64,000 nucleotides of DNA from Flectonema sp. DT1601 (GCA_964019425.1 OZ025780.1:1674001-1738000), one strand, 5' to 3'. Shown: positions 7,675 to 54,939, counted from the stretch's first letter. The notes: generated from the sequence alone by a model not told the origin. Numbers and translations: made by a program.

Positions 7675-10091
7675 ATGGCACATACAAAGCAATTACAACA
7701 AAAAATACATCAAAAATTGCAAAGTGGACAGTTTGAGGCACATACGTTAGAATCTCTTCCGCTAACACATCTGTTTCATGTTCTTTGGGAAGGTTCTACT
7801 AATTGGTGTTTGACTCACAGGGTGTCTCGACCAGCACAAGACAAATCATCATTTTTATTGCGCAGAATACCTGATACGGTCGTATGGGAAAATAACATCC
7901 CAAAAGGTTGGTATCGCTACGAAGAGGAGATGGAAGAAGGTACTGATGGACAAAAGGTAAAAGTCGGCAACATAAAAAAAGATAAAGTTGACACAAAGAA
8001 AGTTGACTACTCATTCACAAACGGCAAACACGATGACGACATCGTCGCAATGTATCTCGCTAAAGCATTGGATGGGGTTAAAGAGATAATCAGAATCGAC
8101 TATTTAACAACAACAAATCTTCGAGCTTTTCTCTTCTCTAGAAATAGAGGTAAGGGTACCTGTCTTCTTCAACGTTGGGTTGAACCTCAAAACAGAGAAT
8201 TCAACGACGTCATTCAGGCAGTGTGGACTTCCAGTCTGAAATGCCTTGTTGAACGTAGAAGGGTTTGTCATTTTTTTTTTTTTTTGTCTTGTCTCATCTC
8301 TCCTTTTCGGGAAAAAAAAAAAAAAAAAAAAAACAGAATAAAACACACCTTCTCGATGAAAGAGTTTGTCTCAGAGAAAGATGTGTCACATTTGATGGTC
8401 CTCCACATCTGTCATCAACAACAAACTTGAGTCCAAGGCTAACCGAACAGGTGAGTATATCATGCGCGAGTATCGCTGAGCATTTTAAAAGTAACGTATC
8501 ACTAACGAGACAACAACCAAAACATGAAATAACGAGAATGATTGTTCAGTTTAAAATAGACTCAAACTGTCACTTGGTATTACTCGGAGTATTAGGAGTT
8601 AGAGTTCCGAACAGATTGAGGAAAAAGGATCTGTTTGTTGCCTTAGATCTCGCACCTGTTTATCAACATATAACACACGCAGTTACAGATGAATCATCAG
8701 AGACCATAAATCCAACATCAGGTCAACGTAGAGTTAGTATTCAAACTGTTGAAGCTCCTGAGGAAGTTGAGAATGATGAAGATGACTTTGCTTCATGGCT
8801 AGCTGGTAGAGTGAAAGCCCGTCGTAGATCAACTGTGACATCAACTCCGTGGTCACGACGTCAAAGTAAAGTTCAGAGAGAACCTTCAAAAAGAAAATCA
8901 AAACAACCATCACTTCGTATGCCTGTTGACCACAGCGCCTGGAAAGGAAACACCGCCATCTGGGGAAAACAAGGCGGTGGCTTCATCACTAGAGATGATA
9001 TTGGTGTCCGTAAATCAAAAGAACCAAAGTTACGAGGAACTGAAAAGCGAATCCTCGAGAAACTAATTCATTGCGAGGAACAGTTGACTAATAAAATAAT
9101 GCCAGTAGCGAAGATTAACATGTTGACGAAGATGATGGTAAATACTTCGACTGGTCCTGAGGTTCAAATAGTCTCCAAAATAAAAGAACAATTCTTCCGA
9201 GGTCTCAACGTAGCTCCGACAGCTGCAGACGTAGACAACTTAGAGTCTACTTGGTGTATGTTATCATCGCACATTCAAAAGCGAAGACAAACAGAAACAA
9301 AGCGCGACAGTAATCCGAAATCAGTTAAAGCAGACAACACTCACACGATGAAAGCAGTATCTTCTCCTTTTGATGCTCGGCATCGATGGCAGCTATTGAG
9401 GACGGCTGTTAAATCAAGATTCATACTTCCCAAGATATCAAGTCAGACTCTAATTCACGATTTAACTGACGCGGTGTACATGTTGGAATCTAATAAATTA
9501 CTTAGAAAAGGCGAAGTTCCATTTTCTTTCACTGTGAGAAGTGTTCCTGAGATGCTGACTTTATTTCTTGACGTCTTCATTGATTCCATTAACGCCACTG
9601 AAATTCCAACCGACAACCGAAGTGAAAGAACCTACATAATTGAGGCAAGGGATATACTACCTGTCCACACTTGTGATATCGCTCTGCAAACTGCTGTTAA
9701 AAATATAAGCAAAGCTCTTAATACGAGACAACAAGCAGTTCTGCGAAACGATGGTGGTGGAGCAGCACATATTTTATATGCGTTGGGATCTTTAACTCGA
9801 AGTCAGCAATGTTCTACTCCACCACCTCAAATGGTGAGTTCACCAGTATTGGGTTATGATGATTGTCGGCCACAAACTGCAGGTGAGAGAATCAGAAGAT
9901 CACTGGATGATATTGTTGAAGACTCCACTTGGATTGATGATGCTGACACTCAACAGTTTCAGAGTAGTATGGATCTTAATCAAACGACTACTACTACTAC
10001 TTCAAATAATAGTTTTAATCATAATAATAAAAGTCTTAAATGTGATGACGAGTTGTCTAGTTCAACGTATTCTGAAAATGGAGGATGGTAG
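7675..10091 (+). CDS. Uncharacterised protein (780 aa), join(7675..8262,8337..10091); N-terminal half possibly a divergent ATP-grasp-like fold
   Basis: Removing intron 8263..8336 joins the two ORFs in frame (LVERRR|NKTHLLDER); LLQRWVEP and MIVQFKIDSNCHLVLL resemble ATP-grasp strands (tentative). Confidence 0.75.
8263..8336 (+). other. Spliceosomal intron, 74 nt, phase 0
   Basis: GTTTGT...poly(T)...poly(A)CAG; restores frame. Confidence 0.85.
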
Positions 10092-10616
10092 CACCCTGAA
10101 TGCTGCTTCACCACTTTTTTATTAGTCATAAAGGTTCAAAATGTTATTTTTTTTTTTTTTTATATTCCTTTTTGGTTTGTTGTTCCATTTTCTGTGATTT
10201 CTGTTTTTTCTATTTTTTTTTACTGTGTACACCTATTCTACAGTAGGTTTACTTGGGTTAAAGCCCTCACGTACTGGACTCGTATGTGCTTTAAAATACT
10301 CATTATGGTCGACTTTAATTCTGACTTGTCAGATATAAAGTTGACACGTTTCACCGAACTGGTAGTTAGACACCCACCTCCCCTTCTACACTACACAAAG
10401 GGCTACTGCTACCTTATAGTTGTAATCACTTACTTTCACTCAGCCATCCATTCTTTTGTTTTTGACAACTAGTCTGGGTTTAACGCTTTGAGCTAATTAC
10501 CTTCTCTTGTATTTTTTTTTTTTTTTTTTTTTTTTTAATAAAAAGGTGTCAACGTGATGGTTCTCAAAAAAAAAAATATAATAATTCATAAACCAGTAAA
10601 AAAAAGTAATAATTAA

Positions 10617-11543
10617 ATGATTCGTGTATCATTACTATTGACTTTGTGTGCTTTATCATGTGGATATGAGTTACCACCTCGGCTTAATGATCTTTGGGAG
10701 CGAGTATCATGTATTGATGGGGTAATGGATTCAAATGAAATAGGTATTTGGTTTTGGATACCTGGAGGACAACATGTTGGGAAGACGTTAATAGTTTTAG
10801 GAGGAGATAATATCGGTGAATTAGTAAACTTAGTTAGAGATGGATACATGGTTTGGACTCGAAGGGATAATTGCAAAGATTATCGACCGAAATTACATGC
10901 GCAGGTCTGTCGTGAGTATTTTGGTTATTTCAGCTACCTTGCCGACAATGATCCAAGAAAACCAGATCCTCCTTCGGTAGCATTCATCCATGGACATGAG
11001 AATTCATGGCATCAACGATTCGGTTGGGCATCCCTACGTGCTGCGACTAACTGCGCTCTAGCAAAGGAGAGATTCATCCCTATTGTCAGAATGGAATGGG
11101 AAGTAGCTAATAATGGATACAAGAATTATAGGGATTACACTGCGTCGATTAAACTTCCAAAATATATTTTAAAAACCAGCAACTCAAATAAATCTTACAT
11201 CGCTTTTTGGAATAGATATTTTGGAAATATCCGATCGATAAGTGCCCACCAACTTGGTGGATGGTGTTGCGGTCAGTTTGTTGTTCCCAGAAGCGTCATT
11301 CACAGAAATCCACATGAATTTTATGCTCAACTATTACCAATATTAAAAACAGGTAAGGGTGGATTTACTGGTTCTTTCAACGGATTCTTTTTAGAATACG
11401 TTATCCATTTATTTTTTGGTGAACCTGCACAAATAAATCCATACACACAATCTTCGTGTATAGATGATGATGGCAACGAAGATTTAGTGTTTCTAAATCA
11501 TAGTAAGGTTAAAAACTTTGAATACGATTTGATGGCAAAGTAG
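10617..11543 (+). CDS. Secreted DUF3431-family protein (308 aa)
   Basis: Signal-peptide-like N-terminus; FIHGHENSWHQ, CCGQFVV and FLEYVIHLFFGEP motifs typical of DUF3431. Confidence 0.75.
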   Translation: MIRVSLLLTLCALSCGYELPPRLNDLWERVSCIDGVMDSNEIGIWFWIPGGQHVGKTLIVLGGDNIGELVNLVRDGYMVWTRRDNCKDYRPKLHAQVCREYFGYFSYLADNDPRKPDPPSVAFIHGHENSWHQRFGWASLRAATNCALAKERFIPIVRMEWEVANNGYKNYRDYTASIKLPKYILKTSNSNKSYIAFWNRYFGNIRSISAHQLGGWCCGQFVVPRSVIHRNPHEFYAQLLPILKTGKGGFTGSFNGFFLEYVIHLFFGEPAQINPYTQSSCIDDDGNEDLVFLNHSKVKNFEYDLMAK

Positions 11544-11930
11544 GTATCCTTTCTTTTTTTTTGTTTCGATCGATATTCGTGTTCTGTTTTACACAGTTCT
11601 TTTTTTTTTTTACAGAAATCCGGGCATTGATTTCTACTGTCAGTTATTACCAACGGAATAGCTTCTATAGTAAGGAAAATGTTTGGATTGGGGAGAAGAA
11701 AAAAAAAAAAGGAACGGATATGATGAATCTCTCGTTTATCTAGTGATGCATCATTCAGGGTGTAAGGCATTTTATGATTTGAATCATATATTTTTCCCCC
11801 CTTATTTCTTTTTTTCCCTACTTCTTCCCCCACCATTATGGTTGTGTAAGGATATACCTACACTCAGATGCGGCCGTCTGTGAAATTGAAAAAAAATTCT
11901 CATTTTTTCATATCCACAGAAAATACAAAA

Positions 11931-13406
11931 ATGGAAAGGCCACAGCAATTTGTAGAACTGAATGAGATTGACAGCAACGGGAATGAGGAAGTTCAAACTG
12001 CGCAAATTCCAGTGAAGGAACCACTAAGATGGAGGACTGCGACAGCAATGAGACAAGAAAAAGAACAACGTCAGGAACTTTGTATATTTATTGTTTTAAT
12101 GATTTTCGCAGCGGTTGGTTTTGGATTCGTTTTAATATTCTGCGGACGTTCATGGCTTAAGGGACAAGCCATACCTCCATTGCTTGCTTTGCTTACGGTT
12201 TTCGCAATGCCTCTGTTCGCAGTTCTTTGGATAGACATCAAGGCAAAAGAATTCCCTCAAACTTGGGCAAAGGTAATGAGAATGTTTACGTTATCATTTC
12301 TTCCTTTGGTTCTTCCCTTTGTACTAATTTCATTGTTTTTAAGTTGTTCACACAGCGCAAACGACTTTCTTTCCCAACTGAACGATGAAGAAAACTATTC
12401 CAAAACCATCTGCGAACTTGACAAACAAAGCTGCGCTCTACGTTCACCTAAAACCTGTCCTGGAGACTTGAATTTATATAACAGCGATTTGAGCTTTTTG
12501 AACGACACCGGTATGTCTATTATTTGAAATTCTTACTGCTGTATAATCACATACCAAAAACAACAACAACAACAAAAAAAAACAGTTTGTGAGAATTCAC
12601 ATAATTTTACATGCTTCTTAAAAAAGAGTGCTCCATGTACGTCAGATGTAAGGCTTACAATTGGTACGTATGCAGATAAAATGGAAGTCGCTGGTTCATT
12701 AGAAATAACTCTATTAGGATCGGTGTTATACACAATACTTGCGATTGTGTCTACAATGATGATATCCTACAATTATTTATTTGGTAAGAAAGTTATTCAG
12801 TGTGATGAAGATCCTTCGATGAAATTTGTTATAACTAATGAAGATCAGAGTATTTTAAAAACGGTTTTAACGAGGAATCAATTAATGATTTTATCGGTAA
12901 TTATCGCATTCTGCTTAGTCAGTGGTGGTGTTATTGGTATGGTGTTTAGTGTCACTGTCGCGACACCGTCCATTGCGAATAGTGATTACAGACAATCATG
13001 TGAACTTGTTAACGTTTTACGTGAAGATTCGGTTCATTGTTCTGGCAATTACAGACAAAGAACTTATTTAGTTAGCGTTCCTGCTTTTAAAAATGAAGAA
13101 TTCTTATTAGCTGACGGTGATTGTGAGTCTATGTTCAGTGACACTCCTCATACGGAGTGTTTCTTTAACGAAGATGGTTCTGAAATTGAGTTAAATTATC
13201 CATTCCCTGAGAACATCATAGGGATTACTGCAAATGGAACTTTAGTTTTCGGTGTTTTGATGTTTTTTCTAGTGATCTATTTTGATAGCGGTGAGGTTAA
13301 AAAGGAAGTTGAGCAGGATTTACAACCCCAAGAAATATCCCCATCTGGAACTGGAACTTCACACCACTCAGAAGTGCAATCAGAGAGTGATGTCGTCCTA
13401 CGATAA
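11931..13406 (+). CDS. Multi-pass membrane protein (466 aa), join(11931..12510,12586..13406)
   Basis: About six hydrophobic segments with Cys-rich loops; a phase-1 intron joins the two ORFs in frame. Confidence 0.75.
12511..12585 (+). other. Spliceosomal intron, 75 nt, phase 1
   Basis: GTATGT...(CAA)n-poly(A)-CAG; restores frame. Confidence 0.85.
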
Positions 13407-14359
13407 GTATAGTTCTGAACTGTGAATACGCGCTCCAAGCGTCTTCCAAACTTGGAGCTCATTTCTTATGAACCAATACATTCCAATGGTGGTACACTCT
13501 TATGGAGCTGTTAGCGTGTGCGTACCTTTTCTTTAATTACCAACTACAAAAAAAAATAAAATAATTGGCATTGTTGACGTGTTCACTCTTCCGTTCTTTT
13601 TTTAAGTGTAAATACGTCATCTTTGCTTTTTTTTTTTTTTTTTCTAAATTGCTTTTTCTAAAAAAGAAAAAATGCTTAATCTAATCTTCTGTTATTACCT
13701 TATTTATTTTTTTTTTGTTTTATAAACTTTTGTTACTGTCGAACTACTACCCCTTTCTTTTTCAGGTTAGTCCCTGCATTCACTTTGATTGTTACTCTTA
13801 AGCGCAGTTTTCATTCAGAAATCACTTCATCTCTCTTCGCATATTGCGGAAGACGGATTACTCCTGTTTAGGGTTTTTGAAGGCAAATTTAAATGAAAGA
13901 GGAAGGATAATTTTTTTGCCATTTTCTCTGGTTTTGGTTTTGGTATGAGTTATGGTTCACCTTTATTTGGTATGAAGGAAATCTTATGATTTTTTCGTGT
14001 CAAAATCTCTCTCTGATTACATACCCTTTTGTTGTTTTGTTATTATATTTTTTTAAATCTATAGATATTTGTCAATACAATACCCTCTGACCAACCCCCT
14101 AAAGTCATCAAATATTATTCTGAAATATTATTTTTGAGATCTTTTTGACTGTTTTGGTTAGTTTTTCATGTGAATTTTGTATGAATAATTGCTATGTATT
14201 TATTGCCCTTTTTTTTCGTCATCGACACAGCAATTGAGGGGTTTTTTTTTTTTTTTGCTTATTAAAAGCTAAATTTGCTACTTATCATGTTTGTTGTTAC
14301 TTTTATTAACTTATTTCATTTTTTTTTTATAAAAAAAAAAAGGGTTAACAGCAATACAA

Positions 14360-18128: not shown

Positions 18129-18134
18129 CTAACT

Positions 18135-22765: not shown

Positions 22766-23310
22766 ATTTGATCATGACTGGTGAAATATTCTATTTTACC
22801 TTTTTTTATGTATTTATATGTGTGTTGTGTGTTTTGTTTTGTTTTGTCGCATCGGTCGGTAACACGCAGTTGCAACAACAACAAAAAAAAGTATACTAGC
22901 ATTATGTTTTTCCCGGGATTTAAAAAAAAAAAAAGCTGGAATAAGACGACGGCTTTTGTTTTGTGCAACGCAAAGAATCTCAGCAGAGAATGATTTGAAT
23001 CACCTCCAAAAGACATAGTCGTCCCTCCAGCACCCCGGGTTTTTCCTGTTGCTGTATGTCGAGACAACGATCAGAGTCAGAAGAAAAGAGTATATTTCAC
23101 ATTTATGGATTCTTATATTCTAAGAGGCGAAGAATGGAGTTTCCTTTATATTTTCGTGGAAAAAAAAAAAAAAGTGTCTTTGTCTTCTTATCAGTTGAGT
23201 GGCTTTCATTCAACAGGTCATATTCTTATCTGTCTCCAGCGAACCGTCAATTTTTGTTTGGAAATTTCTCTTCGTGGTATTTCTTTCTTTCAGTTAAAAA
23301 TAAATAAATA

Positions 23311-24129
23311 ATGAGTTTAGTACTTAGGTCAAGCAGGGTTTTGCGTACGGCTTTTCGTCCTAGTGCTCCTCTTCATGGAGCACTTCGACCAACTGGAGTC
23401 AGGTTTTTGAAGATGGCATTGCATCCTGATGACCCTCGTAACTTGGAGACAAAAGAGTACGTTGATGAAAACCAAACTAGACTACAGAAAGTTGCTAGAC
23501 CTGGAACTAAACCGGGAAACGCTCTTCAATGGGTTATGACCAAATTGGTACACTTTAGAGACTTTGCTTTCGCTTCATCTCTTTGGCCGCTTACGTTTGG
23601 ACTTGCCTGTTGTGCCGTTGAAATGATGCACACGATGTGTTCCCGTTACGATCTTGATAGATTTGGGATTGTTCCTCGTGCTGTGCCTAAGTATGATTAT
23701 GACAGTCTTATTAAAAAAAAAAAAAAAAATCATTTTAATTTTTTTAAAACAAACAAACAAACAGACAAGCTGACTTAATCATCGTAAGTGGAACTCTTTG
23801 TAATAAAATGGCTCCCATGTTTCGAGTCTGTTATGATCAGATGCCTTATCCAAAGTGGATAGTTTCTATGGTTTGTGATTTTTTATTTATTTTTTTTATT
23901 GTGTTTTTTTATTTTAACAAAAAATGTGTTAAAATAACAAAAAAATCAGGGATCATGTGCGAACGGAGGAGGTTACTACCACTATTCCTATTCAGTGGTA
24001 CGAGGTTGTGATCAAATAGTACCAGTTGATTGTTATGTACCTGGGTGTCCTCCACCGGCAGAAGCTCTTTTATACGGACTCCTACTGCTATCAAGGAAGA
24101 TTAGAAATCAGGAGATTCACACAATCTAG
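23311..24129 (+). CDS. NDUFS7: NADH:ubiquinone oxidoreductase PSST/20 kDa Fe-S subunit (221 aa), join(23311..23690,23765..23870,23950..24129)
   Basis: [32 protein letters not shown] and VPGCPP motifs after removing two introns; Arg-rich mitochondrial presequence. Confidence 0.96.
23691..23764 (+). other. Spliceosomal intron, 74 nt, phase 2
   Basis: GTATGA...(AAAC)n-AG; gives VPRAVPK|QAD, matching NDUFS7 spacing. Confidence 0.93.
23871..23949 (+). other. Spliceosomal intron, 79 nt, phase 0
   Basis: GTTTGT, T-rich then A-rich, AAAAATCAG; gives VSM|GSCANG. Confidence 0.95.
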
Positions 24130-24205
24130 GGAGGTCTACCTTCTTAATCGTTGTACGAAAGACGAGAAGCATTTTGTTTCTGGAATGATGGAAAATGGTG
24201 ATTAG

Positions 24206-24237
<32 letters not shown>

Positions 24238-24975
24238 ACTATTTCCATAACAACCACGCAGGGGAACTTTTTTTTTCTTCTAATTTTAAAAAAAAAAAAA
24301 GTTCGAATCGTTATTCCCGTGTAGCATAATGTCTTTTATGGCGTTATCGTTTCTTACGGTTTCGCGACGATCAACGTTGAGGTTAGGGACCCTGAGTTCA
24401 GTCTGTGGGGATATTTCCCTATTTTTTTTTTTAAATTTTTATTAGCGACATTTTTTATTTCGTATCGTAGTCTCTGTCTGTACTACAGGCCGTATAAGAC
24501 TATGAGTGTACAAAAAAAAAAAAAGGAAGAAGAAGAAAAATAGCAGAAAGTGTTTTTGTCATCTCGGTTTTCTTAAGTTTGGTTTAAGTGAATGATATTT
24601 CTCAGTTTTTTTTTTTTTTTTTTTTTTTTTTGTTTGTTGAGTTTACAAAGAAAAAAAAAAAAAAAAAAAAACCGAAAAATTCACTTTCGGTTTTTAGAAC
24701 AATAGCAGGCACGCCGAATAGTAGTGTTTTCTAATGTCATTCGTGAACTATTTTGTCGTATTTTTGTAGCATTCTATTTTTTTTAAAAAAAAAAAATTGA
24801 TTTGACCTCCATCTTAACTAAGACACCATACAATGACGTTACTGCTTGGATGTTTATTTCGTGAGACACGACTAACTGAATTGTAATAATAGTATTTTCT
24901 CTCCCTTCAGATCGAAGAAAACACACACGAAAATAAGAAGCAAATAAAAAAAAAAAAGAGTAAAAAAAAAAAAAA

Positions 24976-26200
24976 ATGATGCGTTGTTTCACTACTCTAA
25001 TGCTATCAGCGGTGGTTACTGGTGAAATAATTTATCCTAAAGTCTTGGGGAATCCAGCTCTTGGACATGAAGGAATTAAGATGTTGAAAATATACATGGG
25101 AAAAGTAACACTGAGTTATCACTATGGTGCTTTTGGTTTATGTACTGAAGACTACGATGCGAATGGTGTTAAGAATGGGTATTCCAAGCTGACGTTAAAT
25201 GACCGTCAGATTTACAAGCAGAAATACTCCGACAGGTGTTCCACTCCTGTAGGAAGAGCAGAACTCACTAACACAGAATTGCAACTCGACAGTGGTGATC
25301 CATACAGAATGTTACAATATATACAAAAGATAAACAATGGAGGCTATGACTTTAAAGAGTATGCCTCAGGTGATTGCCACCCATCTCTCGCAATTAAAGC
25401 AACCGACGTAAAGAAAAAGGTCAGTAGTGGTCCATCACTACTACCACTTCACCCAATTGGTATTTGTACCAAGTCGGAGATTGACTCTTTCGGATTAGCT
25501 AGAGATGGGACTATCTGTATTGAGAAGAGAAGGTTCACAAACCCATCTTGTTCAGGAACTCCTAGTAATACTCGTTTGAAATTATACAACACCTGTTTTG
25601 CGAAGGAGGGTTCTTCCTATGCTGACTTCATTACGTTTACGGGATTTACTCCTGACGATTTAAAGGAAGCATTGTGCATGCGTGCATTGATTGATAAAAC
25701 ATTCTCACCTTCAGGTACCTGCGGTGATATTCCAGCGGCGGACACCGCTGAGCTTTGTAAGGAGATTGGTCTTAACATTCATGAAGTTACGCATTCTCCT
25801 CCTACTGGATCGGGTTCAGGCAGTTCAACGTCAGTTGCAGCGACTCTCTTTGTATGTATTTTTATGTTTAGATGTACATGTGATCTACAAAACAACAACA
25901 AACAAAAAAAATAACAACAAACAGATAATCTTCTTAGTATTAGTATTCTTGTACTGCTTTATTGGTGCTGGATGGAGATATCAACACGGGGCTAAGGGGC
26001 TAGCATTGATTCCTCATCACGAAGCACTATCAAAGCTTGCTGACAGAAAACGTGGATGGTTCCAAGTCACAGGTGCTCAACAAAGTGAACTCGACTTCGT
26101 TGAAGATGAAAGTGTTAACGAGTTGCAGGATTCTAATGACGTTCTCGACGTTATTGAAGACACCGACATGGTCGGAGATGTTGATGTTACAGTGCAGTAA
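24976..26200 (+). CDS. Type I membrane protein with ATG27/cation-dependent M6P-receptor-like TM and cytosolic motif (383 aa), join(24976..25851,25925..26200)
   Basis: Signal peptide, Cys-containing lumenal part, Ser/Gly linker, TM split by the intron, YCFIGAGWRYQHGAKGLALIPH motif, acidic tail. Confidence 0.7.
25852..25924 (+). other. Spliceosomal intron, 73 nt, phase 0
   Basis: GTATGT...(CAA/A)-rich-CAG; joins two halves of one TM helix. Confidence 0.88.
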
Positions 26201-27817: not shown

Positions 27818-27855
<38 letters not shown>

Positions 27856-28234
27856 ATTGACATATTCATACTAACTAACTAATGGATGACCCAAAAGAAA
27901 GATTTCTTTTTTAAAATTTTATCCCGAGAAGCCTAACATTATTTGTTTGTTGTCCTACGATTTTTTTTTGAATTTCATTTTTTTTTTTTTCAATTTGACT
28001 GATATTTATTAAATACCGATTATTTCATGACAACGATGCCTGGGATAAGTATTTTTCTTTTCTCATTGCTCGCGCCGATGAAAAAAAAAAAAAAAAAAAT
28101 TCAATAAAAAGGGATCTTGAAATTGAAATTTTTTTATAATTAAAAGTTTTTCTGTATCTTGTCTTGCAAACCAAAACTTATATTGTTCTTTTTTTCCCCA
28201 ACACAGCATTTAATTATTTTTCACATAATTTAAA

Positions 28235-28556
28235 ATGTCCATAGCTGGAAATCAATCTGTAGTATGTCGTTACCTTGTTGGATTGTATTAAGAAGTTTAT
28301 TGGAATTTAAAAAAAAAAAAAATAAATAATACAGACGGCTGCAGCAGCTTGGATGAGTTCACACAATTTCATAACCAGCACCAATATAATGGAAAAACCA
28401 TACGCTATCTCAGCATGTGGTGCTGATAGTTGTCCATCCACATATAAACAAGTCGATAGCTGTACTGGTGCTCCTTGCAACATCTGGATAAAAAAAAGTG
28501 GTTCAGAAGCCTGTCCACAAGGAACTGGTGACAGACTTGTATGTCGTAAACGGTAA
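28235..28556 (+). CDS. Small six-cysteine protein (82 aa), join(28235..28261,28335..28556)
   Basis: ATG after a Y-rich AG (28205-28206), 9-codon first exon, intron of consensus type and length, in-frame join to ORF 28353..28556. Confidence 0.65.
28262..28334 (+). other. Spliceosomal intron, 73 nt, phase 0
   Basis: GTATGT...poly(A)...TACAG; in frame. Confidence 0.7.
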
Positions 28557-31600: not shown

Positions 31601-32876
31601 ATATAAACGGAGCCTCGTATGGGGCCACACCTATCCCAATTATTGAAGCGCAGTATAAGTGGATGAAAATAATTCAACAAAATCCCTGGGAATGGAGATT
31701 TAAAAATTTATTCTCCCGAGTGAGTGAAGTAGAAGCCATGATCGCTAGTGAAATTAATTCTAACCCCGCTGACACAAAGTTAATGATAAATGCTAACGCG
31801 GCTACGTCAACAGTTTTAAAAAGTATCATTTGGAAAGACACCGACAGAATATTAATATTTGACATCGATTATGATGCGACTAAGCTGGCAGTTCAGTGGC
31901 TATCAAGGAGGTTCGGAATTACCGTTTTAACTATGAAAGTCAAACTACCAATCACAGACTATGACTTGTGTAATCAGCTGGGTGACTACCTTGCAGAAAT
32001 ACGCAATCGCAATCCGGAGGAGCTTCCGTTTCTTGCTAACTTCTGTCACATCACATCGAAAACTGCATATGAGTTTCCAGTCAGGAAACTGACTAAAGTC
32101 TTTCATTCATTTGGTTGCCTTGTTATGGTTGATGGTGCCCAAGCAGTGGGTCAGACCAGTGTAGATGTTCAGTCTTATGGATGTGATTGGTATTGTGGAA
32201 CACTTCACAAATGGATGTATACTTGTCCGGTATGTCTTACTAACAAATAATAAAAAAAAAAATTCAAAAAAAAAAAAAATAATAAAAAAAAAACCCCAAA
32301 CAGGGAGTTGCATTCTTGGTATCAAGAGAGGAAAAACATCGAGAAACCAAATCACTTACTGTGACTCCAGGAGATAACTCCTTTGGAAAATTATCGTATC
32401 AAAACATATCAGAAGATGTTAGCACATGGATAACTGCATTAGACTCAAGAGATTTCGTAGATTACGTCTTTGGTGGGATTCACAGCATAAGAAACGCTCT
32501 CTCTCAACAATGTAAGGAAGTAGTTTCATTCCTACAGTCTGAATGGAACACGACTGTTTTTCAAATCGACAGTGATGGAAAAGCACATTACAACTTACTT
32601 CCTATTATCCCTTTACCAAATGGTGAGGGTGCTTCACCTTTAGATGCTTTAAAAGTTATGGCGTATCTCGCAATGAAGCATGACCTGACAGCTTTTTGTA
32701 TGGTGATTCCTATAACTAAGAATGGAACAACAACAGATACTCTCTGTATTCGATGCACAATCCAAATATGGACTGATATGGATGACTGGAAAACTCTGGC
32801 GAAAGCAGTTAAAAGCCTCGGAGGTGACTACGGATCTCTGAATATAGTAAAAGGAGCAGTTTGGATGAAGGGATGA
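28693..32876 (+). CDS. Tudor-like domain followed by two [2 TM + class-V PLP-dependent aminotransferase/C-S lyase-like] modules (1369 aa), join(28693..32229,32304..32876)
   Basis: Two copies of YxNGAxYGATP, HxT, VDGxQAVG and DWYxG motifs; the second has HKW; resembles the isopenicillin N epimerase / Egt2 / L-cysteine desulfhydrase group. Confidence 0.85.
32230..32303 (+). other. Spliceosomal intron, 74 nt, phase 0
   Basis: GTATGT...TACTAAC...poly(A)...AAACAG; gives HKWMYTCP|GVAFL, parallel to FAAPGVSFL in copy 1. Confidence 0.92.
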
Positions 32877-33639
32877 TTTTTGTCTCCCCTGTTTTTAAAT
32901 TAGATTATTGGTTTCCTTTTTTTTTTTTTTTTTTTTTTTTTTGTTCTCTCCTCTCAGTCTTCGGTATCTTGCTGCTCACTGACAGACCCAGCAGTTTTAT
33001 TTATTTATTTTTGGAAATTTCTTGTCTTTCTTAATCGAGTGTTTTTCCCTTTACCATTTGATGCGAGGGCAGGTTTTTCCAAAAAAAAAAAAAAAAAAAA
33101 AAAAAACAGTACCAATATTTCTTCCCTTCTTTTTTTTAAAACTTTTTGTAGTTAATTCCAGCATCAAAAGTAAGTCAAACAACGTTCAAGTGTTCCTTCA
33201 GCGACATATTTATTTTGACAGTCGTTTGATACGCTGCCGCTGACAGTAGTTTTTCTTCAGTCGTAAGACATTAAAAATAATAATAATAATTCAATTTACG
33301 TTCTTTTTTTTTGCCATAATTTCGCAAGACCAATATTTTAATATTTTATTCGATTTAATAAAAGTTCTCTCTGTCTCCAGGTTGAAACCTTTATTATAGT
33401 TCTATTATCACTGTCAGTTTTTTTTTTGTTGTTGTTGTTTGTTGTTGTTGGCAGGACCAGTACTTTATCGAAACTAACAAAATAACTCCTTTCGAGATTA
33501 TTTAGAGATCTCTCGAAGAATTACTTTCTCTTTGAGGAGACACTTCAAATAATACTCGGTAGCATGTTGTTAACCTTTCCCTCGTTTTTTTTTTTCAGAT
33601 TTAATTAAACGTCGATGACATGTCCCCAAATCTATTCTT

Positions 33640-34545
33640 CATTCATACCAATGATGAGAGAGAGGTGAATAGGTATATAGATTACTCTCGAAACCCCTAA
33701 ATAGTTTACTTTAAAAGGCTAATAATAATAATAATAATAAGAAGTTAAGCATCACTAAAGTTCCCTTGTGTTGTACAATTCGGTTGTATCTTTCCTCCCA
33801 TTTTCCCCCCGTTGTGATATAATTATGGCCTTCTCAGTTTATACTTGGTACTTTATTTTTAGGTATTTTCAAAAGTCACCCTTTCTTCGTGGTACGTAGA
33901 CTACTCTCGCTATACAGTCCAATGATTTCGTTGAGAATTTTTTTTTTTTTTTTTTTTTGTACCGACGTAGTCGGAGAAGAAGCTATTCAGATTGAAAGCC
34001 GTTATTTCTTGTGATCATGACTTCCGTTTGCAACAGGATTCTGTCTGCGTTCAACGAAATATAAGGCTATTCTGAATGGTTTTTTTAAAGTGTGTTTGCT
34101 GGCGAGTCCTTTTCGGTTTATAGAACATCTTCTCTCCGAGTTATGGTTTTGTTGGTGGAGGTAGCAGTGAGAAGAAAACATTTGATTTCTTTTTAGTGTC
34201 TTTGACACCTTTTCCTTGATTTATATTAAGTTTTAATTTTTTATTTTTTTTTTTTATTGTTTCAGCGCTCTGTAATTGGCGACAGACAATCGAACGGTTT
34301 TCTTTTCCCCCCTCCTTTTCACTATTAGTGAGCTACGAACTAGTAACAGCAAAAAATATGTTTTTTTTATTTATGAACATGAAACTCAAAGTAACTACAT
34401 TCCAGTCCTGCAAACTGGAATGACTCAGTCTCAGCATTTGACTGACTTACTTCTACACCATACTGATGAGAGAGAATAGAGGTAAGAGGTATATGGATTA
34501 CTCTCGAAACCTAATAGTTACTTTAATATGCTAAGTTGCGCATCA
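33640..34545 (+). repeat. Diverged direct repeat of about 90-110 nt (copies about 33640-33755 and 34457-34545)
   Basis: Shared TGATGAGAGAGA, AGGTATAT, GATTACTCTCGAAACC, AATAGTT, TACTTTAA and GCATCAC in the same order. Confidence 0.8.
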
Positions 34546-34914
34546 CCCTTAGTCACTGTATTTAAAACTAATGTTAAATTATCTTTATGTTTTTATGATA
34601 CAACACAGTTGTAATTTTTACAAAATCGAACATACATCCCCCTCCTTTTTTTTCCCTCAACCAAAAACCCGTTGGAAACTAGTTGTTAAAATCTACGATG
34701 TGCGAGAATTCAATTTCCTCACAATCTGGTTTCCTTTGGTCAGCTTGGTTTTGATTTCGTTATATCGTTTTTTTACCACAAAAAAAAAAAAATAAACAAA
34801 ACTATATTTCAGAATATTTCTCAAAATTATATAATTTTTAAGTTGTTTAATAATGCTAGACTGGAACTGCCTGTCTGCGGTGGTAGCGAGTGTTCGTGTT
34901 ACGCTTTCAATGAT

Positions 34915-35027
34915 GTGAAAGCATGGCCTAATAACGATCCTTTGGTCTCGCTCCATGTTCAAGGGATGAAGCCGGAGGTGACAGAAATATTACCACAGGG
35001 ATAACTGGCTTATCGTTCATAGCGACG
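34915..35027 (+). pseudogene. Degenerate fragment of cytosolic LSU (28S-type) rRNA, domain V
   Basis: GTGAAAGCATGGCCTA..CGATCCTTT..GAGGTGACAGAAATATTACCACAGGGATAACTGGCTT..CGTTCATAGCGACG matches conserved eukaryotic LSU sequence, with about 10 nt deleted and no flanking rDNA. Confidence 0.85.
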
Positions 35028-36236
35028 CTGGGATAAGTGGCTCCGTCAACTTACTTTCTCATTATGCATTATGAATTATCAGTTTTTTTTTTTTTTTTTT
35101 TTTTGTAATCACCACGTTCGTATTTTATTGTTTTCCCTCTTTTTTCTTTTCCCCTGTTTTTCTCTAAAGTACAATATTCTTCAGTCGAGTATTTTGATAT
35201 TAATTTTGTTTTAATACCTAAAAATTGTTATTGTTTTTCCGTTGTCAAAAGTTGCACCCCTATTTTCTATAACAAATAGGTAAATGTGCGATTTTTGATT
35301 TCTGGAAAGGTCATGTCTTCGTTGTTTCGTCTATTGTGTTTTGACACTGGTATGAATAGCTCTCCCCTTTTTTCTGGTATATCTTCTGGTCAATAAGACA
35401 AAAAAAAATATATTTCTTTTTTCTTTTTTTCTAAACAACTGCAAATAGTTTCAGTCAAGTACTTGATATTTATTTGCCTAAAGTTGTTGCTGTTTTTACA
35501 TTGTCAACGTTTCTCCTCCTCCTTTTTTATTTCCCCATCCTTTTTTTGTGTAGTTGAACCTTATAGTCTTTTGCTCCAATATATATATCGGAGTCCATCA
35601 TTCGAGTAGCCTCTTGACGACATCGATTAAAAAAAAAAAAAAAAAGTAATTTTTTCTTTTTTAAAGTCCTAGTCACAAGATTGCATAAGATTTTTTTTTT
35701 TTTTTTTTTTTTCCATCTCTGAGACATGTTTTTCGAGCGAAAGAGAATTTGTGGCAGCGTAACAACGTTAGCAACCTTTACTATATAGGCTTGTTTCCAG
35801 TTGTGCGCAAATGAAATATGGCACAACAATGTTGACACCTTATCTGTAGACGCCATTGCTTTTTTTCTTTTTTTTTTTTTTTTTTGAATATGGAAAAAGA
35901 AAGTACTTAGTCTTTCAAGTAGTTATTTAATAGTGTTCGTTGTAGTTTTGTAACGCACCAACAACAAAAAAAAAAAAGAAATTCATTATATGAAAAAAAA
36001 GGAAAATACAACGCACGTGGGGATAACTGATACCTGTGTGTTCTTCCTTTGACAACTGGGAGGAAAAAAAAAAAAAAAATATCCGAAGACCACATTAAGA
36101 CTCATGTAGAAGTACTTGTCTATAATGCTCCATCTGTTTCGTGAATGTTGATTTTATTTTTTTTCTACGTTTATCTCTCTTCTCTACAGGAGTGCCATCT
36201 TACACTAATTATTTACACACATCGAAATGACAATTA

Positions 36237-37905
36237 ATGAGGTGTTTCACATCACAATCAATTCGTCACCAGAGTTTCATCGCTTTGGTTTTTATTTGTT
36301 GTGTTAGCATACTGCTTGTCGTATTGTCTTTTCGTGAAATTCAGCTACTGCGAGGGAGAGGGAGAGAACATGTTTCGATAAAAGAAGAGTTCAGGAATCT
36401 GGATGATGATTTGAGTGTGTTTTCAGCATCCACAATGAGACGTTGGGACAATTTAACGTCAACCGTGTCATCCATTGCAACGACAGAGAGCTATTTGAGG
36501 AAATTGGGAAGTTTTCCAAAAATGTGTGGCAAGAGTGCACCTATTATTCTAAGATCCAGTTCAGTCGAAGAAAAAAAACCCGTAGTCCACGTAGGCAAAG
36601 GAAGTAATGCGGCAGCGCAATACCTACTTACTGGTGAGGGTTGGTATCAATATTTGCGAATAATTGAAAATAAAAATCCGTCAAAGTGGAATTTATTTTA
36701 TTCAACAAAAAAACGAACCGCTCAGCAGTTGGCAGTACCTCCAGTGGTGACACCACGTGAGCTGAACATGTCTAAAAACTGGCCTGTCTGGTCTCAAGGA
36801 GGACATGATAAGGGAAACTGGCACGTCTCTTGGGATGGTTCTAACCGTCTGCCGAATATCATTTTACCATCGCCACCTCTTTGGTTTCTTACTATTAAAG
36901 ATGCATTCATATTTGACTATTCGGTAGCGACTTGTTCATATGTCTTAACGTCTGGGGGATGTGTAGTTCCAAAATTTGGGTTCCTTCCAACGGTGTCATA
37001 CCAAAAGGGTTTGTTTCCCTCTTCTTTTTTTTTTAATAATAAAATTTTTTTTCCACGAAAAAAAAAAAAAAAATAATAATTATATTGAAACAAAAACAGT
37101 TGCTCTGTTTTGTGATGGTTGGTGTGGCGGTTATTTCCATTTTGTATTTGAGCACCTCCCACGGATTGCTTTAATAATAGACATTCTCAACAAGAACCCT
37201 GAGATTAAAATTACTTTACCAATCCTGGGAGGGAAAAAACCAGGATTCCCGATACACGCAGTGCAATATTTAGTTGACGTATTTAAAATACAAAGAAACA
37301 GACTCATTGATGGTAGTAAATCGATCCATAGCACCCTCACTCTACTTCCAATGCCAATGCCATGCGGGAATATGTATCGTAATGCGCTGTTACATTTGAG
37401 AAAAATAGTTTATAATGAATTGAAGTTAAGTGAAGTTAGGGAGAACAAGTTGTTTAAGATTATTTTAGCTGAGAGAAATCACTCACGGATGCCGATAAAC
37501 TGGTCTGAAATCGTCTTAGCAATTAAAAATATATCCGAAATAGAATTGGTGATTACACAACCTAACTTATCAGTATCTGATCAAATTAAATTATTCCATT
37601 CTGCTGATATAGTCATTGGTCCACACGGTGCAAATCTCGCCAACACGATTTGGATGCTACCATCATCAACTGTTCTAGAACTACACTCATACCATTATGG
37701 AAATATGTGTTATTACAAAGCAGGTCAACAAATTGGGATCAAGTGGAGATTTGCCCTTCATATGAAAGAAAAAGAATCAACCAATTATACAATACCAGTA
37801 GATGATGTAATGTTTCATATTAACGATGCTATGAATATATTTTTTTTAAAAAATTATTTTTCCCATTCGGGAAGAGCCAATCACCCTATGCAAGTGATTC
37901 TTTAA
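36237..37905 (+). CDS. Type II membrane glycosyltransferase, family GT61 (DUF563) (525 aa), join(36237..37008,37100..37905)
   Basis: N-terminal TM; YFHFVFEHLPRI and QIKLFHSADIVIGPHGANLAN motifs. Confidence 0.85.
37009..37099 (+). other. Spliceosomal intron, 91 nt, phase 1
   Basis: GTTTGT...poly(T)...poly(A)...AAAAACAG; restores frame. Confidence 0.85.
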
Positions 37906-37992
37906 CTCTATTGTACTTCACTATGAATTATTAAACAAGATCAATGTCACAATTATGTATTTTTTATATTCTAATTCAGGTAGATCATCACA

Positions 37993-41700: not shown

Positions 41701-43521
41701 GGAAGGGAAAAAAAAAAAAAAAAAAAAAAATTGTAATCCCCCGTCAATTCTCAGTTATTAGCACTGATTCGATAAATTATTTTGTCTTTTTCAAAACTGA
41801 AACCTAACTTCCCTATTTTAATAATAATAAAAAAAAAAAAACGAAAAACAAAAAAACAAACAAACAAAAAACGATGCTTATCTAACTCTCTTAAAAACTG
41901 TCAATGAAATAAGAAATAAATCTCCCTCTCAAGGGGGAAGTCCATCTTGTTGATAGTACGAATGGATGTGAATTAGGATTCAAGGCCTACTCAACCCTTG
42001 CGAACACACTTGATCGCGTAAAAGGTCAGGGGAGTTTCAAGTGCCTCGTAGAATCGAAAAAAAAAAACTTGTGTGAATTTTATGTACACATATGTCACAT
42101 GTGTGTTTTTACGTTTTGTATTTCTTTCTGTTATTTCGGATTATTTGGGAGGGGGTGGGGGGGGGGAGATCTCACTGTTATTTATTTTATGTTATTTGTA
42201 GGCAAAGCAAACTTTGATACAGAACTTGTGGTGGTTTTCACCATCGTGTCTTCCAGCTACTGACTGGAATGACGCAAAGAGGTGCCTAAGTTTGTCTTGC
42301 AATGATCAACTAGCTCCTCTCTCGTAGTATTGAACTCTACATCGCACACAGGGAAGAGGTGTCGGCTTTGAGTCAAAGTGCTTAGATTAGACTTGACTCA
42401 GGCAGGTGTATCAACAAAAAATATATTTCTGCTTGATTTCTGCACCTGTGCTTGCAATGTAAGGTATCAATCTTCCTCCTTATCGTCTGTGGTTGTCGTT
42501 CTCCATCGTATGTGTAGCTCAGTGTACTTCTAAACAAACCTTTACTATGTTTCTCCAGCTCTGCACTTGTAGTGCAGAGAGAGAGGGCGCAACAAGGACT
42601 GCGCAACAAAGCAGTTGAACTTCTGATAAACGACTATTTTTAATTTTTTTCTTCTTCCTTCGCCTTAAGACGTGACACAATTCCCGAGGTGTCTCTACGT
42701 GAGTACATTGTCAAGGGTTCTGCGTGTGTTTTTTTTTAAAACTCTCTATTTCCTTTTAGCTTATCTCTCCATTAAGTTTGAAGGTTAACAGCTTTTTTCA
42801 GGATTTGTTTTTTTTTTTTCGAGGGCTGATCTACTCGTTGAGCGGCGGACGATTTTCTTTACGTTGTTCTTTTTCTTTTTTTTTTTTCCATTTGTGACGG
42901 CTATCCCAAATTTGATTAATTTTCGTTTTTTTTTGTATCAAGTAAGGCTTTGGGTAAAAAATTGCAGATCAAAAAAAAAAAGGTTCTCTAGCCATGCCAT
43001 CCATCGCAGCCAATGAATGCAACGTTTTCACGTTTATCCAGACAAAAGAAAAAAAATAAGGAGGGAATACATTGCCTTTTTCCTTCGATAGTGGAGGGGG
43101 TAAAAAAGCTGTGTGCGTTGTTGCGCAATTGCTGCAGAATAAAGAACCGTTGGATCAATGTAACCTGTACAGGAACTTGTATAGGGAAAAAAAAAAAAAA
43201 GAAAGAGAAAAAGAAAAAGAATCGTGCATTCAGTTTTTTTTTTTTTTCTTTTCTTCCCGTAGCGTATTTTTCCAACCGCGTGCATTATGTGCACAAAGGT
43301 GCAAAAGAGAGTGAACCAAAATGAAGAAAAAAAGAAAAAAAAAAAAAAAAAGGACGAACCCCGCTCAAAAAAAGCTCAATGTGGTTTGTGTTTCTACTGT
43401 TGGAATAATGTGTATTCATAGTGTTAATTCGCTAAAAAAGCATCGAAATACCCCACATGTAATTGGTACTCTGCGTTTTTCGTTCACTCAAAACTGTATT
43501 TCTTTTCCAGCAGCAAGAAAG

Positions 43522-44106
43522 ATGACAACTTCTGATGAAGATCATTATATTGATTCTTCGGAAATAGAAATGGATGACTGCATTAGATGGCGAGTCGATT
43601 TAAAAAAATTATCAAAACAAATGGAAGATAAAACCCACATCTGGGTTAGAATAAATGAAAAACAGAAATTTCGAATTGAAAAAGGAGAATCCGAATTGGA
43701 TATTTGCGTCAGCTATGATGAGGCTCTTGAGAATGATTTTATATGTCCAGAAGACCCTTGGATTCAACTTCAGAAAGACCACGAAGAATTGACTGCAAGG
43801 CAACCAGTTCCTTCATCAGATTTCGACTACGGAGACACCACAGATTTCGATGAAATATACCTTCACAGAAATACTCAACCCGCACTCCAACGAGCTTGCG
43901 ATTTCGCAACCGACCAAGACAACGACAATCTCTCAGAACAAGTTGGAGATCATTTCTTTGCAGAAGCCCTTCGTCAAGAAGCATACGGCATCCAATCGGA
44001 AGGCAAAGCAGTAGAAATCTCCAAGCAATTTGCGGGGATGAAGTTCCCTGTGATGGAGCCAGAAAACAACACAAAAACCGGAACTACTGTACCACAAGAA
44101 GATTAA
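43522..44106 (+). CDS. Acidic hypothetical protein (194 aa)
   Basis: Coding-like composition from ATG 43522, 11 nt after a Y-rich AG (43509-43510); upstream part of the listed ORF is homopolymer-derived. Confidence 0.7.
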   Translation: MTTSDEDHYIDSSEIEMDDCIRWRVDLKKLSKQMEDKTHIWVRINEKQKFRIEKGESELDICVSYDEALENDFICPEDPWIQLQKDHEELTARQPVPSSDFDYGDTTDFDEIYLHRNTQPALQRACDFATDQDNDNLSEQVGDHFFAEALRQEAYGIQSEGKAVEISKQFAGMKFPVMEPENNTKTGTTVPQED

Positions 44107-44296
44107 TAATATAAAGCATCAAATATTGTGAATATGCTACACCCTAACTGAAGACTTACTCTGCTGTATGTTCATACGCTGTCCCTATCCACCGTGTGAT
44201 CTGATTTTCATGTTCGAACTATGTCGTGCCAACAACAGGTTTTGACACATGTTATGTCATTGTTTTTTTTTCATCAGGTAGCCGGAAACAACAACA

Positions 44297-46093: not shown

Positions 46094-46503
46094 CCCAACT
46101 TCCTTCAATAGTAGTTTTTTAGGTTCCATTTATTGAATTAAAAAAAAAAAAAAAAGACTTTTTTTGTGGAAAAAAAACAAAACAAATGGTCCTCGATTTT
46201 GACTCAAAGTCATTGATGGAATTATAATTAATAAGTTATTGGTTTGGAAAAAAAAAAAAAAAAAAATGAAGAAAAAAAGTAGAACAAAACAGAACAGAAA
46301 CCTAGATGTTGTGTCAAATATATATAGTACCAAACAAAAAAAAAAAAAAAAAAAGGAAAACGTTTCATATTTTTGTGAGTTTGGGAGGTAAAAAAGAATG
46401 TATTTTTTTCTGTAAGTTATATTGTATTAGTGTGTACATCGTTTAATAACAATATAATAACATCTCATTGCCTACATCAGGTGCTAACAAATAACAAAAA
46501 TTA

Positions 46504-46782
46504 ATGCTTCGTCGTAGTATATCACGTAAGGGTTACTCTCCTTTGATATTCTCAACAAGAACAAAGATTTATAAAGTAAACGAGTTACAAGACTCTATCG
46601 ATGACACAACAAAAGATCCAATTGGGGTGCAGTATTATGATAAATTAAATTGGAGAGAGAGATTCGGATCAAAGCTGTTTTGGTGGTCGTGGGGGTTCGC
46701 AACAGTTCTTTATATTTATAGTTCCCTTGTTAGAAGAGCGAATGAAGGGCGGAGCGGATTAATAGCTGATGGTCACAGGTAG
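46504..46782 (+). CDS. Small probable mitochondrial single-pass membrane protein (92 aa)
   Basis: MLRRS start typical of short euglenozoan mitochondrial presequences; one hydrophobic/aromatic segment. Confidence 0.65.
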   Translation: MLRRSISRKGYSPLIFSTRTKIYKVNELQDSIDDTTKDPIGVQYYDKLNWRERFGSKLFWWSWGFATVLYIYSSLVRRANEGRSGLIADGHR

Positions 46783-46819
46783 ACTTTCTACACGTGTCAC
46801 TATTCTACATAACAAAATA

Positions 46820-46981
46820 ATGCTTCGTCGTAGTATATCACGTAAGGGTTACTCTCCTTTGATACTCTCAACAAGAACAAAGATTTATTACGTAAACGAG
46901 TTACAAGACACAATCGATATAGTTCCCTTGTTGGAAGAGTGAATGAAGGACGGGGTGTGATAGCGACAGGTAGACTTTCTA
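46820..46981 (+). pseudogene. Tandem duplicate of 46504..46782 with an internal deletion of about 115 nt and a frameshift
   Basis: First 33 codons nearly identical; sequence equivalent to about 46603-46717 missing; TGA at codon 41; 3' end GGTAGACTTTCTA retained. Confidence 0.88.
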
Positions 46982-47191
46982 ACACAACGTCCGGTAGTGC
47001 AACACATCACAATTCGATACAACAAATTGATGAAAAGTCTGCGAAGATTCAGTTGCGGTGTCTGCTGAACGCAACTTGTTTGTGTTTCGTCTTTTTTTTT
47101 TTTTAGCTTTATTTTTGTAATTCTCTCCTTCAAGCTTATTTTTTCGCAACAGCTCCACCCTTTACTTTAAATATAAAAAAAAAAAAAAACG

Positions 47192-47437
47192 ATGTCAACA
47201 ATTTCTGGTCAGCTTGGTAACGAAAACACCCAACAAGCATCAACAATCGAACAAACCCAACGTCTTTCAGCATTACCAATCGGTGCGTATCTTGATGAAG
47301 CGGTAGTCCCTGTCTTATTACAAGGACTTGCAGCCTTAACAAGAGAGAGACCTGAAAACCCAGTTGATTTTCTTGGAAATTTCTTGTTGAAAAACAATCC
47401 AAACAGAAGAGGACTTGTTGAGCAATCACTTAATTAA
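47192..47437 (+). CDS. DPY30: Dpy-30 motif protein (81 aa)
   Basis: [41 protein letters not shown] matches the Dpy-30 motif. Confidence 0.88.
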
Positions 47438-47870
47438 AATTAGTCATCCGAGAGCGTGACTTCAAACAGTTAGATGCAAGCAGGCAGCAAAGATAAAGTT
47501 CTCCTTATACAGACTTTTATTTAGATATTATTTTCCATTCGGTTTTTTTCCCTTCTTTTTCTTTCCTGCTGTCCCCTCCCATTTCCCATTTTCTTTTTTT
47601 TGATATGTCGTGCGAACCCATAAGAAGGGAAGGAGATGTTCTTACTTTATAAGTTCGTTAAATTATTTAGAAAAATCTGGCATTGAATATGTGCATTATT
47701 TAGTGAAGTTTGGCTTTGTGCAGTTAAATTTACCTTCCATTCTTTTTTTTTTAAAGCAGCCATAACGAATTTAGTACAAGTGAAACGTAATATTAAAAAA
47801 AAAAAAAAAAAAAAAATAAGTTTTACTGCTACATTCTGACAGATTTTTTTTAAAAAAAAACCTTAAAAAA

Positions 47871-48306
47871 ATGGTCACCGTAAGCGGCAACAAATCAGGA
47901 CGTCCATGGAAGAAGGGAAAGAAGAAGGTCTCAACTCTAAACGCAACCGCAGCATCGAAAACAACATTCGCTCAAAGACGTGAAAAACAAAAGAAACAGC
48001 AGGCTGTTAAAGTTATTGCCGATGAACTAAAGAAGGGAGCAGACAGAAAGAAGGAACAAGAGAGAAAACGATTGGAAGCCATGAAGAAGAAGAAGAGTGA
48101 AGACTTACTTAAGTCTGTTAAGGTACAGGTTATTAAGGATGCTAGAAAGGTTTGTATTTATTGTATTTAAAAAAAAAAAAACACTAATTATCATTCCCAT
48201 TACACTACCAACACAGATAAAACGTATGTCGAAAAAGCAAATCGTCAAGTCAAGGATCTACCTAAACTCTCACCTTAATAGAGCCGCAGGTGTCTCCGAC
48301 CGATAA
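47871..48306 (+). CDS. CCDC86: CCDC86/Cgr1-family nucleolar coiled-coil protein (122 aa), join(47871..48149,48217..48306)
   Basis: KSGRPWK start, Lys/Glu helix and VQVIKDARK|IKRMSKKQI motif after splicing. Confidence 0.8.
48150..48216 (+). other. Spliceosomal intron, 67 nt, phase 0
   Basis: GTTTGT...poly(A)...ACTAAT...CCAACACAG; restores the family motif. Confidence 0.88.

Positions 48307-54907: not shown

Positions 54908-54939
<32 letters not shown>

Follow-up and report, generated by a model that had tools for sequence, protein, structure and literature searches.

We examined the 3′ splice signals in a 64,000-nt stretch of DNA from Flectonema sp. DT1601 (GCA_964019425.1 OZ025780.1:1674001-1738000; hereafter the window), comparing the CAG trinucleotides that end introns removed in cis with those near gene starts that are predicted to receive a spliced leader (SL) in trans. 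All counts were taken from this one window, which holds nine introns and 23 genes. Its G+C content is 37.5%, and all 12 stop-to-stop frames of more than 400 aa lie on the + strand, a one-strand gene cluster of the kind looked for in an SL lineage. In Diplonema papillatum, genes are reported to lie in one-strand arrays and the SL to be present on essentially all mRNAs (PMC10161547). The original prediction had placed the sequence among the euglenozoans. This was borne out and, by best protein matches, the lineage is specifically diplonemid (Diplonemidae): the best named relatives of three window proteins are all diplonemid, namely Flectonema neradi for two of them (88% and 59%) and Diplonema japonicum and D. 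ambulator for the third (41-43%). An Rfam search of the window returned zero matches. Nineteen of the 23 annotated start codons came from open reading frames (ORFs) of at least 120 aa, three of these being shifted by eye to a later ATG (11931, 43522 and 57052), and the other four belong to small genes added by eye.

Nine cis introns were found on the + strand. All begin with GT(A/T)TG(T/A) (GTATG in five, GTTTG in four) and end in CAG, exactly as had been predicted. In order of coordinates they measure 74, 75, 74, 79, 73, 73, 74, 91 and 67 nt, so that six of the nine are 73-75 nt long, and with their GT/AG ends, GTATG-like donors and CAG acceptors all nine have the features of U2-type introns of the Diplonemidae. 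Removal of the intron restores a conserved protein by homology in four cases, and the remaining five are called by reading frame alone. Two of the homology-confirmed junctions lie in the gene for NDUFS7, the PSST subunit of complex I, at 23691..23764 (74 nt) and 23871..23949 (79 nt). In an alignment with PDB chain 5gpn_a, exon 1 runs up to residue 117 and exon 3 resumes at residue 154, and the spliced protein has exactly 36 residues in between; this shared fit confirms both introns. The third, 32230..32303 (74 nt), belongs to a doubled aminotransferase class-V gene, within its second half, and the spliced protein aligns gap-free over the junction with the transcript-derived D. japonicum protein P0122. 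The fourth, 37009..37099 (91 nt), is in a glycosyltransferase-61 gene (Pfam PF04577) and is spanned gap-free by an alignment with P0128 (E 6e-75).

The doubled gene (28693-32876, +) encodes 1369 aa as two tandem copies of a membrane-anchored aminotransferase class-V protein of ~680 aa, of which transcripts of D. japonicum and D. ambulator contain a single copy. The intron at 32230 is present in the second copy only, the matching site of the first copy being intronless; it was therefore gained or lost after the duplication.

Among the introns called by reading frame, 8263..8336 (74 nt; U-rich 5′ part, then poly(A) and CAG) joins frames of 196 and 584 aa into one of 780 aa, compared with 251 aa unspliced; its single homologue does not span the junction. 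The intron at 12511..12585 (75 nt) has (CAA)n and A ahead of its CAG and an in-frame stop inside, its product being 466 aa when spliced vs 198 aa. That at 25852..25924 (73 nt; (CAA)n/A-rich end) is supported by frame only (383 aa spliced vs 312 aa). All three were also recovered in a search for frame-breaking introns that was blind to composition. This search recovered six of the nine, the remaining three having exons under its length limits; further candidates with consensus donors were dismissed on visual inspection, being located within intact frames or at the ends of genes. The least supported introns, each called from signals and frame, are probable ones at 28262..28334 (73 nt, of typical length, rescuing the frame of a small 82-aa gene whose exon 2 gave no match in a Pfam search) and 48150..48216 (67 nt, with an A/C-rich, U-poor end, in a Cgr1-like gene of 122 aa spliced vs 99 aa; the Cgr1 match is weak, below cut-off and confined to exon 1). 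A possible in-frame intron at ~8450-8536 (GTGAGT donor), whose sole homologue begins just downstream, was kept out of the counts. In the same gene, for protein P0125 (8337-10091, +), the ORF of the F. neradi transcript, seemingly labelled "complete", begins precisely with exon 2's first Met. In that species the intron might be retained, the SL might be added at an internal acceptor, or there might be a separate gene start.

Within the introns, internal AG is depleted (4 vs 14.7 expected; none of 2000 shuffles as low). The branch-point motif YTRAY occurs 5-50 nt before the 3′ end in three of the nine and anywhere in five, counts that carry no chance control; published frequencies are 2-16%.

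At the gene starts, nine AGs had been named as putative trans-splice acceptors. All nine exist (the positions originally given being those of the A), all are CAG, and pyrimidine makes up 0.70-0.80 of the 20 nt preceding the CAG (-23 to -4), the interval used for all acceptor measurements. These predicted acceptors, all on the + strand, are 293..315 (a U-rich tract and CAG, U 0.65, 29 nt before the ATG at 345), 1287..1309 (pyrimidine 0.80, ATG 1372, with a closer CAG at 1337), 11897..11919 (pyrimidine 0.80, ATG 11931), 23271..23293 (pyrimidine 0.80, U 0.65, NDUFS7 ATG 23311), 24888..24910 (pyrimidine 0.75, ATG 24976, followed by an A-rich 5′ untranslated region (UTR)), 36167..36189 (pyrimidine 0.80, ATG 36237), 37957..37979 (pyrimidine 0.70, ATG 37993 of a heavy-metal P-type ATPase identified by Pfam), 43488..43510 (a tandem CAGCAG, pyrimidine 0.70, ATG 43522) and 44255..44277 (pyrimidine 0.80, U 0.70, ATG 44297). 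Thus a U-rich tract followed by AG near the start codon, as looked for in an SL acceptor, is present in the window. As this set looked hand-picked, the contrast with the introns was retested blind, taking the CAG nearest upstream of each start codon whatever its composition. The blind rule adds further predicted acceptors at 28184..28206 (ATG 28235) and with CAGs at 5563, 7672, 17895, 47152, 47842, 48810/48820, 57043 and 58638, all on the + strand.

Under the blind rule the nearest CAGs of the 23 starts have a mean pyrimidine fraction of 0.64 vs 0.27 at intron ends (p = 2e-4) and a U fraction of 0.49 vs 0.14 (p = 4e-5). The contrast persists in the 14 genes absent from the original list (U 0.43, p = 3e-4), with the first ATG of the 19 ORFs and no hand edits (U 0.46, p = 2e-4), and with only the four homology-confirmed introns (p = 0.014). 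It is weaker when the nearest AG of any kind is taken (U 0.37, p = 0.006; p = 0.13 against the four confirmed introns alone). A U fraction of at least 0.4 is found in none of the nine introns vs 13 of the 19 unedited starts. Of the 23 genes, 16 have a pyrimidine-rich CAG no more than 100 nt from the start, compared with 22.5% for noncoding anchor points (p = 2e-6), and 20 have one within 170 nt, compared with a background of 35%. The predicted difference in composition between cis and putative trans acceptors was therefore borne out, blind tests included.

The two sets also depart from the surrounding sequence in opposite directions. At intron ends U is at most 0.30 in all nine and lies below its level at 713 exonic CAGs (0.27, p = 1e-3) and at 198 other noncoding CAGs (0.35, p = 9e-5); at start-proximal CAGs it lies above the latter (0.49 vs 0.35, p = 2e-5). 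U is thus actively low at intron ends and high at gene starts. It also discriminates the classes better than pyrimidine does, because the intron at 48150 ends C-rich: it has only 35% A, with pyrimidine at 0.65 and U at 0.25, and a 22-nt pyrimidine-rich stretch ends 5 nt ahead of its AG. Hence the claim that no intron has a pyrimidine tract next to its AG stands for eight of the nine and fails for 48150, while low U holds for all nine. The best pyrimidine tract ends a median of 39 nt from the AG in introns vs 5 nt at start-proximal CAGs (p = 0.016), and tract size does not differ significantly (p = 0.21). The cis/trans difference is thus one of tract position and not of tract size.

The window therefore contains two sequence classes of CAG, together with four spliced junctions demonstrated by homology; leader addition at the U-rich class is what we infer from their sequence. 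Our preferred reading, to which we give about even credence, is that the two classes, differing in U content, constitute one layer in a two-layer rule for keeping cis-splicing apart from SL trans-splicing. A U-rich CAG would be a stand-alone SL acceptor, its U-tract recruiting 3′ recognition factors (U2AF65-like) without a donor, as in trypanosomes. A U-poor intron end would be a weak acceptor by itself, used only when U1 is bound to a donor ~74 nt upstream (intron definition), and would as a result see little SL addition and little SL-coupled cleavage/polyadenylation. Donor and distance would make up the second layer, with composition contributing but insufficient alone. SL addition in trypanosomes is reported to need a pyrimidine tract and, in T. 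brucei reporters, purine insertions in the tract were deleterious to trans-splicing and a C17 tract was inactive (PMC9639853). Polyadenylation is likewise described as coupled to the pyrimidine tract (PMC6597758). At the intron acceptor of T. brucei PAP1, the SL was seen in 3 tags vs 13 cis-spliced tags (PMC2926603), so that the conflict between cis and trans use of an acceptor is real. The suggestion that purines before the AG hinder SL addition fits the reporter data, with the reservation that an appeal to composition alone is too strong.

The intron ends are also marked by A. The A fraction at -23 to -4 averages 0.72 over the nine introns and is 0.60-1.0 in eight of them, so that these eight share the D. 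japonicum-like trait of an A-rich stretch in place of a pyrimidine tract. We examined all 108 donor-CAG pairs lying 60-95 nt apart on both strands, the nine introns included. An A fraction of at least 0.6 was found in eight of nine introns, none of 35 exonic pairs (p = 5e-8), none of six mixed pairs, none of 46 minus-strand pairs and one of 12 noncoding pairs (p = 4e-4). Such near-perfect separation from exonic and noncoding decoys is what would be expected if the A/CA tract were a positive signal for cis-splicing, read by a protein of its own (perhaps a U2AF large subunit that has diverged, or else a poly(A)/CA-binding protein), with SL avoidance a consequence and not the cause. In several diplonemids the introns contain recurrent CA-rich motifs, and diplonemid introns are spliced poorly by T. 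brucei in reporters (both PMC12621601), which also agrees with this explanation. However, low G and high AT separate the introns from exonic decoys as well, the intron at 48150 has little A, and U2AF1/2 are reported to be present in D. japonicum (PMC12621601). We regard a dedicated positive signal as quite unlikely; it overlaps with the two-layer rule, composition being functional in both.

Alternatively, the donor might decide on its own: a nearby U1-bound donor would commit an acceptor to cis-splicing, a good acceptor lacking one would receive the SL (an outron rule), and the A-rich end would be filler with no role in excluding the SL. Such filler could arise if length were fixed at ~74 nt, G and AG were avoided, dependence on U2AF were relaxed in very short introns, and the AT-rich genome supplied slippage-prone A runs. 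The narrow length distribution argues for a ruler of this kind, six of nine introns measuring 73-75 nt though they are largely homopolymers. Moreover, the donors are uniform, A-runs abound in noncoding DNA and 5′ UTRs, and trans-splicing is predicted by donor strength in Ciona (PMC11155486). Filler would, however, be expected to lack polarity, and the introns are 52% T in their 5′ part and 70% A in their 3′ part, yet the noncoding DNA of the strand is T-biased (38% T, 29% A). In addition, U at intron ends falls below even the exonic level, and the presence of 35 suitably spaced exonic donor-CAG pairs in intact frames implies that donor and distance do not define an intron. We therefore consider a rule based on the donor alone unlikely, if less so than a dedicated A/CA reader.

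A further idea is that base pairing between the U-rich 5′ and A-rich 3′ halves folds the intron into a hairpin, so that its ends are joined and the U-tract is hidden, as in the intermediate introns of euglenids. The intron at 8263 does fold stably (-13.8 kcal/mol, z = -3.1), and those at 23871 and 37009 also form U:A stems. Against base shuffles, however, the other eight have z between -1.5 and +0.9, and those at 32230 and 48150 barely fold. With only one of nine introns folding better than its shuffles, a hairpin was rejected as a general rule and is highly improbable as the basis of the contrast. Nor do the introns belong to the nonconventional or intermediate euglenozoan class, their borders being canonical and a stable stem being found in one of nine.

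Returning to the two-layer rule, a number of observations weigh against it, and above all against the stronger proposal that base composition alone separates cis from trans acceptors, which was not supported. Exons have not been purged of potential acceptors: exonic CAGs with pyrimidine of at least 0.7 number 31 vs 30.9 in synonymous shuffles (23 coding sequences; modest power), U-rich ones 25 vs 27.6, and those of a CAG/YAG variant 57 vs 58.2; nor was any purging of donor motifs seen in exons. In three introns (8263, 23871 and 37009) a long U/C tract stops short of the acceptor, by 26, 32 and 41 nt respectively, without an intervening AG, and trypanosomes are reported to prefer the first AG downstream of the tract (PMC6597758). 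Every intron has a consensus donor 67-91 nt upstream of its acceptor, which could by itself commit it to cis-splicing. There are 35 pyrimidine-rich CAGs in noncoding DNA far from starts, some of which may be real SL sites, and three of the 23 genes (10617, 18986 and 28693) have no CAG with pyrimidine of at least 0.65 within 170 nt. A-richness is also widespread: noncoding DNA holds 73 A-runs and 80 T-runs of at least 8 nt, and the 5′ UTRs are A-rich (0.45, rising to 0.59 in their last 10 nt). Finally, receipt of the SL at the trans sites is itself a prediction, and the sample is small, with nine introns and 23 genes from a single window.

Some of the exceptions among gene starts may be introns in their own right. 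The most A-rich of them is the CAG ending at 14351, which has a consensus donor 63 nt upstream, as the two-layer rule predicts. The segment 14289..14351 (+; 63 nt) has a GTTTGT donor, a U-rich middle, an A-rich end and a CAG 8 nt before the ATG, and is the sole one of 99 non-intron donor-CAG pairs with an A fraction of at least 0.6. A pyrimidine-rich CAG lies upstream of it, at 14230. It looks like a tenth intron, placed in a 5′ UTR, and accepting it as such would remove the worst exception among the gene starts. Two other gene starts have an A-rich or mixed nearest CAG, with non-consensus donors upstream, at 10509-10596 (GTATTT, 88 nt) and 3113-3219 (GTTTGG, 107 nt), both on the + strand; these are possible 5′-UTR introns or else exceptions. 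The two rules conflict at 47078..47152 (+), ahead of a Dpy-30 gene, where a consensus GTTTGT donor lies 75 nt upstream of a U-rich CAG: the donor-only rule would make this a cis intron, and the composition rule predicts a trans acceptor.

Several other features of the window were observed. An intronless gene at 3248-4729 (+) encodes a cysteine synthase fused to a glutaredoxin domain. Its protein matches Flectonema at 88%, and its next-best matches are ~60% identical, the named ones among them being bacterial (e.g. Marinobacterium), which suggests horizontal transfer. A gene at 56947-58278 (+) encodes a pectin acetylesterase (PF03283), in line with the polysaccharide-degrading repertoire reported for diplonemids (PMC10161547). 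The + strand also carries a small Pro/Cys-rich repeat protein of 164 aa (345-839), with no match in a Pfam search, and a 1611-aa Ser/Thr-rich mucin-like gene containing 93-bp tandem repeats (60184-60873) and, further on, cysteine-rich repeats. A local segment duplication without a long ORF was seen by eye at 46500-47000 (+; ~46503 and 46818 onward). Two regions, 33000-36100 and 52500-56900, contain no + strand ORF of at least 120 aa and are rich in T-runs and pyrimidine-rich CAGs; they may be unannotated small genes or 3′ UTRs of the very long kind that has been reported from D. papillatum. Metagenomes were scanned with two of the window's proteins. The aminotransferase alignment gave 127 pattern matches, none of them a relative, and NDUFS7 exon 1 gave 80 retained loci with 49-74% identity, none near enough to suggest a diplonemid.

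Lastly, we compared the signals with those of known systems. Thakur et al. 2025 report that D. japonicum introns have a GTATG donor and end in CAG, and that A is their most frequent base in the tract region, with a weaker A preference in L. lanifica and R. humris and a C preference in other diplonemids (PMC12621601). The window introns share with these the GT-AG borders, the (G)/GTATG donor, the CAG end and A over the tract region, and resemble in length those of R. humris (median 74 nt). D. japonicum itself differs, with 41% identity, a median intron of 41 nt and, set against its GTATG, four of the nine window donors being GTTTG. The paper reads the A-tract as spliceosome flexibility and, in the parts available to us, SL acceptors fall outside its analysis. 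Going by its text and not its sequence logos, the C- or CA-rich intron ends of the other diplonemids are apparently U-poor as well. In the literature searched we found no contrast between cis and trans acceptors in diplonemids, although the D. papillatum supplement (PMC10161547) or the figures and supplements of PMC12621601 may show it; the available parts of the dinoflagellate (PMC2488372) and cryptomonad (PMC5619915) reports likewise contain no precedent.

Outside the diplonemids, Schistosoma mansoni is alike in that its trans acceptors have more U close to the AG, and longer pyrimidine tracts, than its cis acceptors (PMC5832876). However, its two classes are reported to overlap, cis acceptors accounting for 43% of SL sites, whereas those of the window are nearly disjoint in U and its cis ends are purine-rich. 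In Ciona, too, cis- and trans-splicing compete for AG acceptors, but the choice is described as following donor strength and outron composition and not an inverted base content at the AG (PMC11155486). Therefore, the A-rich cis end (D. japonicum) and U-richer trans acceptors (Schistosoma) are already known, and a near-disjoint split into U-rich and U-poor acceptors in a universally trans-splicing lineage appears to be undescribed. The question of how one spliceosome decides between cis-splicing and SL addition is sharpest in diplonemids, where near-universal trans-splicing coexists with many intron-containing genes. A near-disjoint signal at the AG would turn a published oddity, poly(A) replacing the pyrimidine tract, into a testable rule, and the U/A contrast offers a simple filter for diplonemid gene prediction and for spotting introns in 5′ UTRs.

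A further comparison is with the kinetoplastids, which share the polypyrimidine tract and AG for SL addition, the GTATG donor and the one-strand gene clusters. As described in the available parts of the reports, they differ in having only three intron-containing genes (PAP1, DBP2B and RBP20), in whose introns pyrimidine tracts persist but have no fixed position (PMC9639853, PMC6597758, PMC2926603, PMC11613528), and the SL leaks to the cis acceptor of PAP1 (PMC2926603). It is possible, though we would put it forward only tentatively and with some doubt, that the Diplonemidae as a whole have split the 3′ splice signal by U content, such that U-rich means add the SL and cut, and U-poor means cis-splice only (A-rich in AT-rich genomes, C- or CA-rich in GC-rich ones), possibly through U2AF65-independent or separate recognition. 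If true, such a split would explain how intron-rich genes exist alongside universal trans-splicing of polycistronic RNA in diplonemids, and why kinetoplastids, which lack it, keep almost no introns.

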